Part shown: positions 9,030 to 45,000 of the stretch, piece by piece
How positions within the stretch are numbered: the first letter of the stretch is position 1
Layout of the letters: the number at the start of each line of letters is the position of its first letter
NCBI RefSeq assembly: GCF_003334335.1
Contig: NZ_QOWQ01000015.1
Reading direction: 5' to 3' (one strand)
DNA: 64,000 nt
Source of the DNA: Escherichia coli
GTDB lineage: Bacteria; Pseudomonadota; Gammaproteobacteria; Enterobacterales; Enterobacteriaceae
Notes under the pieces: generated by a model
Database searches by the model: none
Told to the model about the DNA's origin: nothing
Seen by the model: only the letters and a program-made list of their open reading frames with translations
Program-made: the position numbers and the translations under genes

Positions 9030-9175
9030 GATTCGCCTGAACATGCCTTTTTTCGTAAGTAAGCAACATAAGCTGTCACGTTTTGTGATGGCTATTAGAA
9101 ATTCCTATGCAACAACTGAAAAAAAATTACAAAAAGTGCTTTCTGAACTGAACAAAAAAGAGTAAAGTTAGTCGC

Positions 9176-9284
9176 GTAGGGTACAGAGGTAAGATGTTCT
9201 ATCTTTCAGACCTTTTACTTCACGTAATCGGATTTGGCTGAATATTTTAGCCGCCCCAGTCAGTAATGACTGGGGCGTTTTTTA
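9176..9284 (+). ncRNA. spf: Spot 42 small regulatory RNA
   Basis: Sequence GTAGGGTACAGAGGTAAGATGTTCTATCTTTCAGACC...GCCGCCCCAGTCAGTAATGACTGGGGCGTTTTTTA matches Spot 42 from recall; ends in an intrinsic terminator. Confidence 0.92.
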
Positions 9285-9409
9285 TTGGGCGAAAGAAAAG
9301 ATCCGTAATGCCTGATGCGCTATGTTTATCAGGCCAACGGTAGAATTGTAATCTATTGAATTTACGGGCCGGATACGCCACATCCGGCACAAGCATTAAG
9401 GCAAGAAAA

Positions 9410-10042
9410 TTATTCGCCGTCCTGCGTTTCTTCTACAGGCTGCATCTCGCTAAACCAGGTATCCAGTTTCTGCCGCAGCTTGTCCACGCCTTGTTTCTTC
9501 AACGAAGAAAACGTTTCAACCTGCACATCACCGTTAAACGCCAGTACAGCTTCACGCACCATATTCAATTGCGCTTTACGTGCGCCGCTTGCCAGTTTGT
9601 CCGCTTTGGTCAGCAGCACCAGAACGGCGATATTGCTGTCTACCGCCCACTCAATCATCTGCTGATCCAAATCTTTCAGCGGATGGCGAATATCCATTAG
9701 CACCACCAGACCTTGCAGGCTCTGACGTTTTTCGAGGTATTCGCCGAGCGCACGCTGCCATTTGCGCTTCATCTCTTCCGGGACTTCCGCATAACCGTAC
9801 CCAGGCAAGTCAACCAGACGCTTGCCGTCAGCCACTTCAAACAGGTTGATAAGCTGGGTGCGCCCTGGGGTTTTTGAGGTACGAGCCAGGCTTTTCTGGT
9901 TAGTCAGCGTGTTCAGCGCGCTGGATTTACCTGCGTTGGAACGGCCTGCAAAAGCCACTTCAATTCCGGTATCGGAAGGTAGGTGGCGAATATCAGGCGC
10001 ACTCATCACAAAATGCGTCTGTTGATAATTCAAATTAGTCAA
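9410..10042 (-). CDS. engB: Ribosome biogenesis GTP-binding protein EngB (YihA)
   Basis: 210-aa ORF; G1 motif [15 protein letters not shown] switch region; recognised by recall. Confidence 0.95.
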
Positions 10043-10312
10043 AGCGGTCGTCTCCGTCAGTCAAAGCTTTGTGGCGATTATACCTGAACCATAATAAAAG
10101 GCGGATTTTTCGGCGTGAGCGTTGTAAGTAAAAGCCATACGCTTTGTGAGACATTGCCGATAGTCTTTATGCGAAATAGCAGAGAAAATTCTGCGATGCA
10201 TGTCAAATAAGCTATATAAATCAGTGAATTGCTTTTATATAAAACTCTGAAAATGTGCAAATACTGATGGCGGTTGATTGTTTGTTTAAAGCAAAGGCGT
10301 AAAGTAGCACCC

Positions 10313-10556
10313 ATAGAGCGAGGACGCTAACAGGAACAATGACTCAGGATGAGGGTCAGGAGCGCCAGGAGGCGAAGACAGAGGATTGTCAGGAAGACAA
10401 ACGTCCGGAGACGTAATTAAACGGAAATGGAATCAACACGGATTGTTCCGGCTAAAGGAAAAACAGGGTGTGTTGGCGGCCTGCAAGGATTGTAAGACCC
10501 GTTAAGGGTTATGAGTCAGGAAAAAAGGCGACAGAGTAATCTGTCGCCTTTTTTCT
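10313..10556 (+). ncRNA. csrC: CsrC, CsrA-sequestering small RNA
   Basis: About 245 nt with at least 13 GGA/AGGA motifs on the + strand and a 3' hairpin aggcgacagagtaatctgtcgcct plus T-run (10525-10554); matches CsrC by recall; ends are approximate. Confidence 0.85.
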
Positions 10557-10623
10557 TTGCTTGCTTTCTGTTAGATTCCGCCGCAAATCTATACTGAATA
10601 AAACGGCTAAAAGACGAACCATT

Positions 10624-11133
10624 ATGAAACCATCATCTTCAAACTCACGCAGCAAAGGTCATGCAAAAGCGCGTCGAAAAACACGCGAGGAGCTGGATCA
10701 GGAAGCTCGTGATCGCAAGCGTCAGAAAAAACGTCGTGGTCATGCGCCGGGCAGCCGCGCAGCGGGCGGAAACACCACGTCAGGCAGCAAAGGCCAGAAC
10801 GCACCAAAAGATCCACGTATTGGCAGTAAAACCCCTATTCCATTGGGCGTGACTGAAAAAGTCACCAAACAGCACAAACCGAAGAGTGAGAAACCTATGC
10901 TTTCACCGCAGGCGGAGTTGGAATTACTGGAAACGGATGAGCGTCTGGATGCGCTGCTGGAACGTCTGGAAGCAGGCGAAACCCTGAGTGCCGAAGAGCA
11001 ATCCTGGGTGGATGCTAAACTGGATCGTATTGATGAGTTGATGCAGAAACTCGGCCTCTCTTATGACGATGACGAAGAAGAGGAAGAAGACGAGAAGCAA
11101 GAAGACATGATGCGTCTGCTGCGGGGCAACTAA
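10624..11133 (+). CDS. yihI: Der GTPase-activating protein YihI
   Basis: Start placed at ATG 10624 ([19 protein letters not shown]..., 169 aa), not ORF-track 10561 which runs into the CsrC terminator; basic N-terminus, acidic C-terminus [10 protein letters not shown]. Confidence 0.9.
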
Positions 11134-11321
11134 CGGATTGCCGCCGTGGGCCTTCCCGTTCTGCTGATAACCCTTCCGGTTATATGTTATCTGGTGTGGT
11201 TATTCGTTAAACTACAGCGGTTGTCGCGGCGACAAAAGTGGCTGCGCAACCGGCTGATGACCCGAAACGGGCATCCGCCGGTACGCCGTAGCCGCCAGAG
11301 ACGCCATCGGAAGGAGTGAGC

Positions 11322-12805: not shown

Positions 12806-12890
12806 TGTAGGCCGGATAAGGCGTTTACGCCGCATCAGGCATCTGAGCATGATGCCTGATGCGGCGCTGGTCGCGTCTTATCAGGCCTAC
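12806..12890. repeat. REP/BIME element pair
   Basis: Canonical REP motifs gtaggccggataaggcgtttacgccgcatcaggc and gcctgatgcggcgctggtcgcgtcttatcaggcctac in inverted orientation. Confidence 0.9.
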
Positions 12891-17443: not shown

Positions 17444-17532
17444 CGCACCATCGTGCAAAAGGGCTGCACCACGATGTGAATGTTGCACCAATATAGTGCT
17501 TCAATGGAAACATTAAGCACCATGTTGGTGCA
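17444..17532 (-). promoter_or_regulatory. NtrC (NR-I) enhancer binding sites upstream of glnAp2
   Basis: Palindromes GCACCATGTTGGTGCA (17517-17532), TGCACCAATATAGTGCT (17484-17500) and GCACCATCGTGC (17444-17455), centred about -140, -108 and lower relative to the sigma-54 promoter. Confidence 0.75.
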
Positions 17533-17683
17533 ATGACCTTTGGATAACCCTTTTTATGCTCCGTGAAAGCGATCACAAAGGGACTCTGCAATACTTGTTT
17601 GCGGAGGATGTTTGTGATCCTGTTTTGTAGTGCGATTAATCCGTGTACAATAACGCGCTATTTCTAATGCCTGAGGCAAAGTT

Positions 17684-19507
17684 GTGATCGAAAAATTGCG
17701 TAATATCGCCATCATCGCGCACGTAGACCATGGTAAAACCACCCTGGTAGACAAGCTGCTCCAACAATCCGGTACGTTCGACTCTCGTGCCGAAACCCAA
17801 GAGCGCGTGATGGACTCCAACGATTTGGAGAAAGAGCGTGGGATTACCATCCTCGCGAAAAACACCGCTATCAAATGGAATGATTACCGTATCAACATCG
17901 TTGATACCCCGGGGCACGCCGACTTCGGTGGTGAAGTTGAACGTGTAATGTCCATGGTAGACTCAGTGCTGCTGGTGGTTGACGCATTTGACGGCCCGAT
18001 GCCGCAAACGCGCTTCGTAACCAAAAAAGCGTTTGCTTACGGCCTGAAGCCGATTGTTGTTATCAACAAAGTTGACCGCCCTGGCGCGCGTCCTGATTGG
18101 GTTGTGGATCAGGTATTCGATCTGTTCGTTAACCTCGACGCGACCGACGAGCAGCTGGACTTCCCGATCGTTTACGCTTCTGCGCTGAACGGTATCGCGG
18201 GTCTGGACCACGAAGATATGGCGGAAGACATGACCCCGCTGTACCAGGCGATTGTTGACCACGTTCCTGCGCCGGACGTTGACCTTGACGGTCCGTTCCA
18301 GATGCAGATTTCTCAGCTCGATTACAACAGCTATGTTGGCGTTATCGGCATTGGCCGCATCAAGCGCGGTAAAGTGAAGCCGAACCAGCAGGTCACTATC
18401 ATCGATAGCGAAGGCAAAACCCGCAACGCGAAAGTCGGTAAAGTGCTGGGCCACCTCGGTCTGGAACGTATCGAAACCGATCTGGCGGAAGCTGGCGATA
18501 TCGTTGCGATCACGGGCCTTGGCGAACTGAACATTTCTGACACCGTTTGCGACACGCAAAACGTTGAAGCGCTGCCGGCACTCTCCGTTGATGAGCCGAC
18601 CGTTTCTATGTTCTTCTGCGTTAACACCTCGCCGTTCTGCGGTAAAGAAGGTAAGTTCGTAACGTCTCGTCAGATCCTGGATCGTCTGAACAAAGAACTG
18701 GTACACAACGTTGCGCTGCGCGTAGAAGAAACCGAAGACGCCGATGCGTTCCGCGTTTCTGGTCGTGGCGAACTGCACCTGTCTGTTCTGATCGAAAACA
18801 TGCGTCGTGAAGGTTTCGAACTGGCGGTATCCCGTCCGAAAGTTATCTTCCGTGAAATCGACGGTCGTAAACAAGAGCCGTATGAAAACGTGACTCTGGA
18901 CGTTGAAGAACAGCATCAGGGTTCTGTAATGCAGGCGCTGGGCGAACGTAAAGGCGACCTGAAAAACATGAATCCAGACGGTAAAGGCCGCGTACGTCTC
19001 GACTACGTGATCCCAAGCCGTGGTCTGATTGGCTTCCGTTCTGAGTTCATGACCATGACTTCCGGTACTGGTCTGCTGTACTCCACCTTCAGCCACTACG
19101 ACGACGTACGTCCGGGTGAAGTGGGTCAGCGTCAGAACGGCGTACTGATCTCTAACGGTCAGGGTAAAGCGGTCGCGTTCGCGCTGTTCGGTCTGCAGGA
19201 TCGCGGTAAGCTGTTCCTCGGTCACGGTGCAGAAGTTTACGAAGGTCAGATTATCGGTATTCATAGCCGCTCTAACGACCTGACTGTAAACTGCCTGACC
19301 GGTAAGAAACTGACCAACATGCGTGCTTCCGGTACTGACGAAGCCGTTGTTCTGGTTCCGCCTATCCGCATGACTCTGGAACAAGCTCTGGAGTTCATCG
19401 ATGATGACGAACTGGTAGAAGTGACTCCGACCTCTATCCGTATTCGTAAACGTCACCTGACGGAAAACGATCGTCGCCGCGCCAACCGCGCACCGAAAGA
19501 CGATTAA
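17684..19507 (+). CDS. typA: Ribosome-dependent translational GTPase TypA/BipA
   Basis: 607-aa ORF with GTG start at 17684 and GAGG Shine-Dalgarno at 17672-17675; G motifs [18 protein letters not shown]; recognised by recall. Confidence 0.95.
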
Positions 19508-19524
19508 TTTCGTTTTTTAGTCAT

Positions 19525-19557
19525 AAAAAACCTGCCAGCGATGGCAGGTTTTTTTTT
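19525..19557 (+). terminator. Rho-independent terminator after typA
   Basis: Hairpin cctgccagcgatggcagg flanked by A-run and followed by T9. Confidence 0.85.
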
Positions 19558-19723
19558 GCCTGTCGTGAGCGCACACCAATGCGAGTATCTCCCTTATAAG
19601 TCTGTGGTTACGTCAATAGAGAGCTTTGTCACAATTATCTGCAAAGTCATACGCCGTTAATTGCTTTCTTTTTTGGCGTAAGCGTAAGATGCTTCATCTG
19701 GTTTAAACCAAAAGGATTAAACA

Positions 19724-42048: not shown

Positions 42049-45000
42049 TTACACCTTTTCCACATTCACAAGGAAGGACTTAAACTCCGGCGTCTGCGTG
42101 TTCGCATCACCAACGAATGGCGTTAAAGTATTGGCAATAAAGCCTTTTTTAGCTACGCCTTCATAGCCCCAGTGAATCGGAATACCGATGGTATCGATAT
42201 CTTTGCCGTTCGCTTTCAGCGTGCGAATACGTTTGGTCACCACCGCTTTGGCTTTGATATAGCCACGGTTGGAGGAGACTTTCACGGTATCGCCCTGGGC
42301 AATGCCAAGTTTATTCGCCAGCGACTCCCCGATTTCCACAAACTGCTCTGGCTGCAAAATCGCGTTCAACAGCGCGTGTTTGGTCCAGTAGTGGAAGTGC
42401 TCGGTCAGACGATAGGTGGTTCCGACATACGGGAACTTATCGGCTTTACCCAATGCTTCGGCGTCGTCTTTAAAGATACGTGCAGCCGGGTTCGAGATAA
42501 CGTTTGGATGCAGCGGGTTAGTTCCCAGCGGCGTTTCAAACGGCTCGTAGTGTTCCGGGAACGGACCTTCCGCCATCTTATCGAGGGCAAACAGACGCCC
42601 CATGCCTTCCTGCTGCATGATAAACGGCCCGACGCCGCTACCCGGAGGCGCTGCGCTGTAGTCCGGAATATCCCAGCCGGTCCACTTAGTGCCGTCCCAT
42701 TTCAGCAACTGACGCTTCGGATCCCACGGGTTACCCTGCGGATCTGCGGAGGCGCGGTTATACAGAATGCGGCGGTTAAGCGGCCATGCCCATGCCCAGC
42801 CCAGCGTGTTACCGAGGCCAGACGGATCGGCGTTATCACGGCGTGCCATCTGGTTGCCTTCCGGCGTCCAGCTACCGGCGAAAATCCAGCAGCCACAGGA
42901 GGTTGTACCGTCATCGCGCAATTGGGCGAACGAACTAAGTTGTTGGCCTTTCTTGACGATAACCGCACCGGTTGCCGGATCGGTAATATCGGCCAGCGCC
43001 TTACCGTTGCTCTCCATCGCCACTTCTTCTGAAGATGGCTCATGCGGAATGGCGTAGTTCCATGTCATGTTCAGCACCTGGTCCGGGTTCGCGCCACCCT
43101 GTTCGGCATACATCTTGCGCAAGCGCAGGAAGATACCGGAGAGGATCTCGCCGTCAGTCAGCGCAATCCCCGGGGCGTCCGCACCTTTCCAGTGCCACTG
43201 TAACCAGCGACCTGAGTTAACGATAGAACCGTTCTCTTCCGCGAAGCAGGTCGATGGCAGACGGAACACTTCGGTCTGGATCTTCGACGAGTCAACTTCG
43301 TTCAGCTCACCGTGGTTCTGCCAGAAGTTAGAGGTTTCAGTGTTCAGTGGGTCGATGGTGACGAGGAACTTCAGTTTCGACAGACAACCGATCACTTTGT
43401 TTTTGTTCGGGAATGAGGCAACAGGGTTAAAGCCCTGGCAGATATAGCCATTGACCTTGCCCTCTTTCATCATCTCGAAGTATTGCAGGACGTCGTAGCC
43501 TTTATCCCACTTCGGCAACCAGTCAAAGCCCCAGCTATTTTCCGCCGTCGCTTTATCACCAAAGAAGGCCTTCATCATAGAGACGAAGAATTTCGGGTAG
43601 TTGCCCCAGTAGTTTACCTGGCCTTCCAGCAGCGGTTTTGGCGTGTTGGCGGTAAGGTAGGTTTGCAGATCGGTCTGCTTCTCGCTTGGCAGCGTCATGT
43701 AACCTGGCAGGCTCTGCGACAGCAGCCCCAGGTCCGTCAGCCCCTGAATATTGGAGTGACCGCGCAGGGCGTTAACGCCGCCGCCTGCCATCCCCATATT
43801 GCCGAGCAGCAGCTGGATCATCGCCATCGTACGAATGTTTTGCGCACCAACGGAGTGTTGCGTCCAGCCGAGGGCATACAGGAACGAGGCAGTTTTATCG
43901 TGAGCACTGGTTTCTGCGATGTATTCGCAGACTTTCAGGAACGCGTCTTTTGGCGTACCACAGATGTTTTCAACCACATCTGGCGTGTAGCGGGAAACGT
44001 GCTGTTTCAGCAAGTTCCACACGCAGCGCGGATGTTGCAGCGTGGTATCGCGTTTGGCGAAGCCGTTTTCGTCCAGTTCATAAGTCCAGGAGGATTTATC
44101 GTACTTGCGTTTTTCCGCGTCGTAGCCGGTGAACAGGCCATCTTCAAAGCCGTAATCCTCACGCACGATCAGGCTGGCGTTGGTATAGGCTTCGGTGTAT
44201 TCGCGGTTGAATTTTTCATTGTTCAGCAGGTACAGCAATACGCCTGACAGGAAAGCAATGTCAGTACCGGAACGAATAGGGGCATAGTAGTCAGCTACCG
44301 CCGCCGTACGCGTAAAGCGAGGATCGATCACAATCAGCTTCGCGCCGTTGTGAATTTTGGCTTCCATCGCCCAGCGGAACCCGACCGGGTGAGCTTCAGC
44401 GGCGTTACCGCCCATCACCACGACGAGGTTGGCGTTCTTGATGTCGACCCAGTGGTTGGTCATCGCACCGCGACCAAATGTTGGAGCAAGACTTGCTACC
44501 GTTGGTCCGTGTCAGACACGCGCCTGGTTGTCGACCGCGAGCATACCCAGCGCGCGGGAGAATTTTTGCGTTAAATAGCCGGTTTCGTTACTCGACGCGG
44601 AAGCACACAGCATCCCGGTGGAGAGCCAGCGGTTAACAGTCACGCCTTCGGCGTTTTGCGCAATGTAGTTAGCATCGCGGTCTTCTTTCATCAGTTTGGC
44701 GATGCGATCAAACGCCTCTTCCCAACTGATTTGCTGCCATTTATCAGAACCTGGCGCACGGTATTCCGGAAACTTCAGACGGCTTTCGGAGTGGATGAAA
44801 TCCACCAGGCCAGCGCCTTTCGGACAAAGTGCACCGCGGTTGACCGGGTGATCCGGATCGCCTTCGATATGGAAGATAGATGCTTTGGCGTTTTTTGCTC
44901 CGTCACCGAGGCTGTACATCAACAGCCCACAGCCTACGGAACAATAGGTGCAGGTATTACGGGTTTCGCGGGTGCGCAGCAGTTTATACTGCCGGGTTTC

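Follow-up and report, generated by a model that had tools for sequence, protein, structure and literature searches.

The window analyzed here (the whole stretch of E. coli DNA, 64,000 nucleotides) matches K-12 MG1655 from 4,040,724 onward in its genes and their coordinates over the first 50 kb, with the order of polA, spf, yihA (engB), yihI and hemN shared between the two. The divergent yihA and yihI genes are separated by an intergenic spacer of 581 bp, and the stretch of this spacer that ends 65 nt upstream of the yihI start is csrC (b4457), the gene for the known E. coli small RNA CsrC; nothing new is described at this position. Coordinates of the genes, of the elements of CsrC and of its control region are collected in the table.

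Features of the csrC locus in the window (positions are those of the 64,000-nucleotide stretch)
Feature	Position	Strand	Basis or remark
polA	6243-9029		Gene order shared with K-12
yihA (engB)	9410-10042	-	Upstream neighbor of csrC, divergent
TGTAAG half-site	10123-10128	+	Read from the sequence, 16 bp upstream of the inverted repeat; described in PMC4682653
UvrY-P binding inverted repeat TGTGAGACATTGCCGATA, 18 nt	10145-10162	+	Exact match; centered about -160 from +1
Putative -35 element, TTGTTT	10278-10283	+	Sequence inference
Putative -10 element, TAAAGT	10300-10305	+	16-nt spacer from the -35 element; 7 nt before +1 at 10313
CsrC small RNA (csrC, b4457)	10313-10558	+	K-12 ncRNA annotation, 246 nt
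Five short 5' hairpins	10317-10328, 10340-10358, 10363-10374, 10377-10390, 10401-10414	+	Rfam consensus; GGA in each loop
Single-stranded linker with two GGA motifs (10423, 10429)	10423-10431	+	Unpaired in Rfam consensus
Central longer stem-loop	10434-10475	+	Rfam consensus; GGA 10440 in internal loop, GGA 10457 in stem
Small hairpin with GGA 10487 in its loop	10483-10493	+	Rfam consensus
Small hairpin	10497-10509	+	Rfam consensus
Intrinsic terminator	10518-10557	+	Terminator scan; G+C-rich stem extended by A6/U6 pairing, then T-run
GGA sites in hairpin loops (6 of 14)	10322, 10347, 10368, 10383, 10407, 10487	+	Rfam consensus
GGA sites in unpaired linkers (5 of 14)	10333, 10359, 10392, 10423, 10429	+	Rfam consensus
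Remaining GGA sites	10440, 10457, 10519	+	Internal loop, stem and terminator base, respectively
yihI	10624-11133	+	Downstream neighbor of csrC, co-oriented
hemN	11322-12695		Gene order shared with K-12

By covariance-model search, the Rfam model of CsrC (RF00084) was found to match over its full length (model positions 1-255 of 255, corresponding to 10313-10566 on the + strand of the window) with a score of 278.7 bits compared to a gathering score of 61 (E = 6.4e-88). A segment of 658 nt around the gene (10043-10700) was 100% identical to K-12 MG1655, in which positions 4051036-4051281 of NC_000913.3 are annotated as 'small regulatory RNA CsrC' and correspond to 10313-10558 of the window. The sequence-only reading, which had named the Rfam search as a check, had placed CsrC in the engB-yihI intergenic region at 10313-10556 (~245 nt). 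Both the identity of the RNA and its location between these two flanking genes were confirmed, and the interval proved right to 2 nt as judged by the K-12 annotation, with an exact 5' end and a 3' end that fell 2 nt short, in the U-tail of the terminator. The K-12 gene (RF00084; Weilbacher et al. 2003, cited in PMC7652899) has the same sequence, coordinates, flanking genes, UvrY site and terminator; no difference was found and the two are the same gene. A CsrC length of 242 nt is given in the literature (PMC9808575).

When complete E. coli genomes were searched, csrC was detected at 95% identity or more in 5425 of 5426. The one other genome gave no megablast match to csrC. A few complete genomes had two copies, and two matches were on records labelled as plasmids.

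On the + strand of 10313-10556, 14 GGA motifs were counted, of which ten are AGGA and six are CAGGA, together with only two TCC; the earlier count of at least 13 GGA/AGGA motifs was accurate. Windows of 244 nt over the 64 kb had a mean of 3.1 GGA (sd 1.9) on the + strand and 2.9 on the - strand, and the 14 motifs at csrC were the highest count of any 244-nt stretch on either strand. The csrC segment is 64% A+G, and dinucleotide-preserving shuffles of this segment averaged 8.9 GGA, with 48 of 5000 (~1%) reaching 14. Much of the GGA excess is thus due to purine-rich composition, itself a product of the motif, and the raw count alone is only moderately significant, since about 1% of composition-matched shuffles reach it. 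Published numbers of CsrA sites in CsrC differ, with 9 (PMC9808575, citing Weilbacher 2003) versus 14 (PMC8151843); in our analysis the bare GGA count was 14, and 11 of these motifs were exposed in the Rfam consensus structure.

The anatomy of the RNA was derived by mapping the Rfam consensus structure onto the window sequence, and exposure of the motifs was judged by this structure in preference to the single-sequence minimum free energy (MFE) fold. The fold of CsrC had an energy of -86 kcal/mol (z = -6.9), and none of 200 shuffles was as good. In the thermodynamic ensemble calculated from the E. coli sequence alone, the GGA motifs of the 5'-hairpin region were mostly unpaired (probability of 0.6-1.0), with the exception of 10322. 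The MFE fold of the single sequence included a long-range helix (about 10318-10332 with 10470-10485) that is absent from the Rfam consensus, and buried the motifs at 10322, 10423, 10487 and 10519; it agreed with the consensus on GGA exposure for 10347-10407 and not for all sites. On the question raised earlier of whether the GGA motifs fall in hairpin loops, the consensus places six in loops and a further five in linkers, whereas the MFE fold buries some of these. The strong intrinsic terminator that had been read from the sequence was recovered by the terminator scan as a stem of 18 pairs (7 G-C) with a 4-nt loop followed by a T-run, with the last GGA (10519) at the base of the stem.

Homologs were sampled with an exact 17-mer (GAGCGCCAGGAGGCGAA) that is part of the most conserved hairpin and was scanned against a single genome of each species. 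By this approach, at least 120 loci were detected, about three quarters of which were chance matches in unrelated high-G+C genomes. Among the matches listed, the 32 loci with a BLASTN match to CsrC were kept for comparison, a sample without, for example, Klebsiella and Yersinia. All 32 were from Enterobacteriaceae, and the CsrC homologs were 70-99% identical among the matches listed; the genera include Citrobacter, Salmonella, Enterobacter, Pluralibacter, Kosakonia, Phytobacter, Pseudescherichia, Superficieibacter, Pseudocitrobacter and Silvania. These sequences and that of E. coli (33 in total) were aligned with MAFFT, blind to structure.

Every homolog in this alignment had 12-15 GGA motifs. 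With overall identity down to ~70%, 13 of the 14 E. coli GGA sites had a counterpart no more than 3 columns away in 30 or more of the 33 species, including the two motifs of the single-stranded linker (10423 and 10429, kept within 3 columns in 33/33) and that at 10487 (invariant in 33/33); the only variable site was 10519 at the terminator base, kept in 17 of 33. This positional conservation of 13 of the 14 sites is stronger evidence against chance than the number of motifs. The base pairs were likewise maintained. In the consensus structure, 86% of cells were paired compared to 39-49% when the 3' partners were slid by 1-3 columns, and none of 500 shuffles reached the observed pairing or covariation score. 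Helix 1 had compensatory changes from G-C to A-U in 12 species and helix 5 from U-A to C-G in 7 species, and such changes were also detected in helix 6; helices 6 and 7 were 70-71% paired, with one pair carrying compensatory changes. Across the 33 species, helices 3 and 5 were 100% paired, helices 8 and 9 were 94-99% paired, and 98% of cells were paired in the terminator stem. The gene order was conserved as well, with yihA in divergent orientation followed by csrC and yihI in the same orientation in every related locus with enough flanking sequence; the yihA start was ~260-275 nt upstream and yihI ~300-340 nt from +1. Kulkarni et al. (PMC1488887) described csrC in this context.

Upstream of csrC, the inverted repeat TGTGAGACATTGCCGATA has its single exact occurrence in the 64-kb window. 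ChIP-exo and DNase I footprinting have identified this repeat as a binding site of phosphorylated UvrY at E. coli csrC (Zere et al., PMC4682653). The left half of the repeat (as TGTGAGA, TGTAAGA or TGTAGGA) was conserved in 31 species, and the half-site further upstream was conserved as TGTA-AG in most species. From distance to +1 and cross-species conservation, we infer the position of the csrC core promoter: GTAAAGT (10299-10305) was near-invariant and cTTGT of the -35 region was conserved at fixed spacing in 31 species. A sigma-70 promoter scan of 10000-10700 called no promoter, since only ~7 of 12 consensus positions are matched at csrC; this poor match to the consensus fits with activator dependence. 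Between the UvrY repeat and the promoter, two further blocks on the + strand, AAATCA (10218-10223) and TCTGAAAA (10246-10253), were conserved in ~30 species and may be putative sites for further regulators such as CRP.

The csrC locus has the features by which CsrA-sequestering small RNAs have been recognized (Kulkarni et al. 2006, PMC1488887). It is intergenic, dense in GGA and equipped with a Rho-independent terminator, its GGA motifs are in loops or unpaired regions, and a conserved UvrY/GacA site is upstream; its place between yihA and yihI, co-oriented with yihI, is that of the CsrC family in the same study. As we read the locus, csrC would be transcribed from its own weak promoter in dependence on the activator UvrY-P, and the transcript would end at the strong intrinsic terminator before yihI, with roughly twelve GGA motifs displayed in short-hairpin loops and the single-stranded linkers that separate them. 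According to the literature, a CsrA dimer can grip two GGA motifs, so that one CsrC molecule would tie up several dimers; CsrA would thereby be held off lower-affinity mRNA leaders, and the translational repression or activation that it mediates would be relieved. CsrC would act alongside the larger CsrB, with its level set, again from the literature, by transcription (BarA-UvrY, ppGpp/DksA and CRP) and by CsrD-dependent decay through RNase E. A discrete CsrC of ~245 nt, its high-affinity binding to CsrA and effects of csrC deletion on CsrA-regulated reporters (glgC, pgaA) in a csrB-null background are on record, and published work on CsrC includes Northern blots, primer extension, CsrA gel shifts, phenotypes of csrB csrC double mutants and UvrY footprinting. 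The sequestration of CsrA by CsrB and CsrC, activation by BarA-UvrY and CsrD/RNase E decay have been reviewed (PMC7652899), BarA-UvrY, ppGpp/DksA and further inputs stimulate transcription of both RNAs (PMC7652899, PMC4682653), and SEC-seq has resolved CsrA-CsrC as a distinct complex in vivo (PMC9808575).

E. coli CsrB (Rfam clan CL00106, CsrB/RsmB-type CsrA antagonists) shares with CsrC the CsrA-sequestering array of GGA hairpins, as well as activation by BarA-UvrY through an upstream inverted repeat and turnover by CsrD/RNase E (PMC4682653, PMC7652899). By contrast, CsrB is longer (369 nt versus ~245 nt) with 18-22 GGA motifs versus 14 (PMC7652899, PMC9808575), and its gene adjoins syd, whereas csrC adjoins yihA/yihI (PMC1488887). 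Activation of csrB needs IHF and that of csrC does not, and the UvrY inverted repeat of csrB is the better palindrome (PMC4682653). Neither RNA is retrievable from the other by sequence similarity. The Pseudomonas RNAs RsmY, RsmZ and RsmX are similar to CsrC in sequestering a protein, in their loop GGA motifs and in activation by the UvrY orthologue GacA, but differ in that they are shorter, unrelated in sequence, and set in a different genomic context with a different upstream activating sequence.

Several other readings of the region were weighed against that of csrC with a weak UvrY-P-dependent promoter, an intrinsic terminator before yihI and a GGA array that sequesters CsrA, a joint explanation that we regard as nearly certain. 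If the region were a purine-rich intergenic stretch that arose by chance and has no function, the high GGA count of its shuffled versions (a mean of 8.9, with 1% reaching 14) would be as expected; the covariance match (E = 6e-88) and the positional conservation of motifs, helices, promoter and synteny across 33 species are against it. This reading was refuted by the covariance match and by conservation of the GGA sites and helices, and we give it no credence. The region could also be viewed as mainly a cis-acting leader (5' UTR) of yihI instead of an independent trans-acting RNA, in line with its orientation and its distance of only 65 nt from the yihI start, and some yihI transcription could come from terminator read-through. 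However, in all 33 species the near-invariant 18-pair terminator and its U-tract stop the RNA short of yihI, annotation and literature alike give CsrC as a discrete RNA of ~242-246 nt, and the conserved features are GGA hairpins of the CsrA type and not a structure at the yihI ribosome-binding site; that the region is mainly a leader is thus extremely improbable.

A protein-coding reading has its origin in the annotation. In the one RefSeq record inspected, PGAP placed a 'hypothetical protein' pseudogene CDS (frameshifted, with an internal stop) at 10339-10505 on the + strand and no ncRNA, and of 40 RefSeq E. coli genomes drawn at even intervals from the ranking, all 40 had a 'hypothetical protein' CDS as the only feature under csrC; a csrC ncRNA feature was seen only in the curated K-12 record. 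The statement that protein-only annotation would miss this RNA held in all 40 genomes. In addition to the pseudogene, E. coli has an ATG-initiated ORF of 25 codons (MTQDEGQERQEAKTEDCQEDKRPET) at 10339-10416, with AGGA 3 nt upstream, that could be translated. By contrast, just 4 of the 33 species had the ATG of this ORF, with ACG in its place in Citrobacter and Salmonella; the stop was not conserved, and the longest ORF within csrC varied between species in frame, start and length. What is conserved in csrC are the GGA motifs and base pairs, not a reading frame, and the acidic, Gln-rich 'peptide' is what repeated CAGGA/GAGGA spells in that frame; two recent reviews of dual-function sRNAs make no mention of CsrC. 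With no coding signal across the 33 species, the coding reading of csrC, either as a gene or pseudogene or as the translated 25-codon ORF, was rejected and is scarcely credible. The PGAP pseudogene probably stems from its resemblance to spurious ORFs called in other genera, in which the GGA-rich frame is open by chance (over 46-63 aa in Superficieibacter and in a metagenome-assembled genome, MAG). CsrC could conceivably be dual-function like its neighbor Spot 42/SpfP, sequestering CsrA and also encoding the highly acidic, lineage-restricted 25-aa peptide (10339-10416), which we consider very unlikely; among the 33 species compared, the start codon at 10339 (K-12 4051062) was present only in Escherichia and Superficieibacter, so at most the peptide would have been added recently.

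The identification of csrC as a CsrA-sequestering RNA adds nothing to its biology, as characterization of CsrC dates back to 2003 and the K-12 reference carries its annotation. Its practical value is that of a positive control: a reader without tools recognized a protein-sequestering sRNA in raw sequence and placed it to within 2 nt. A weakness of annotation is exposed as well, in that the sampled, automatically annotated RefSeq E. coli genomes are without csrC and have a spurious CDS in its place.

The start of yihI was also considered. A mechanical ORF call at 10561-11133 begins with TTG and encodes 190 aa, compared to the annotated yihI start at ATG 10624. The suggestion that the 10561 start wrongly extends yihI into CsrC was correct in its first part, as this start over-extends yihI by 21 codons into the spacer; it does not run into CsrC, since 10561 is 3 nt beyond the CsrC 3' end, and the overlap of the ORF with the Rfam model is confined to the final 6 nt of the model's trailing flank.

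Further downstream, in the spacer between yihI and hemN, an ORF of 57 codons with a GTG start was observed at 11146-11319 (+), corresponding to K-12 4051869-4052042 and beginning 12 nt after the yihI stop. No annotation of this ORF was found in K-12 or in any of 30 sampled RefSeq E. coli genomes, and public databases held only sporadic 'hypothetical protein' entries of 57-60 aa. Of 30 enterobacterial species, 29 had the ORF uninterrupted; one MAG had two in-frame stops, and no frame-breaking indel was detected among the 30 species, the single gap being of 3 nt. Variation at codon positions 1, 2 and 3 was 0.089, 0.123 and 0.189, and was thus highest at the third position. The start was retained, either as GTG/ATG in place or as TTG three codons upstream, and the TGA stop overlaps the Shine-Dalgarno sequence and start of hemN (GGAG-TGA-GC-ATG; GGAGTGAGCATG). 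The product has a nearly invariant hydrophobic segment (LLITLPVICYLVWLFV) followed by an Arg-rich tail. In family scans of the 57-aa product, Pfam gave no match and NCBIfam only a sub-threshold match to FliO (E = 0.13), and a literature search for yihI, hemN and 'small protein' found no paper. By its sequence features, this ORF is a candidate for a real, unnamed small membrane protein or for a uORF translationally coupled to hemN.

Other RNA elements were detected in the window by Rfam search. The Spot 42 sRNA, a known dual-function RNA, was matched with 122.8 bits at 9166-9284 (+), one gene from csrC; K-12 spf is at 9176-9286, and the 15-aa SpfP ORF of the K-12 annotation is inside it at 9194-9241. 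ES222 (135 bits) was found at 17495-17602 (+) in the spacer between glnA and bipA, close upstream of the latter, and STnc370 at 19492-19560 (+) at the 3' end of bipA, where its 55.6 bits only just exceeded the gathering score (54); neither is annotated in K-12 RefSeq. A match to SECIS_3 (84 bits) at 44459-44517 (-) was inside fdoG, where the selenocysteine UGA codon is expected, and represents known biology. Four matches to naRNA4 (75-79 bits) were observed, one of them between hemN and yshB at 12810-12887 (+) and the others at 53596-53666 (+), 53688-53758 (+) and 62603-62680 (-); we take these to be REP-type repeats.
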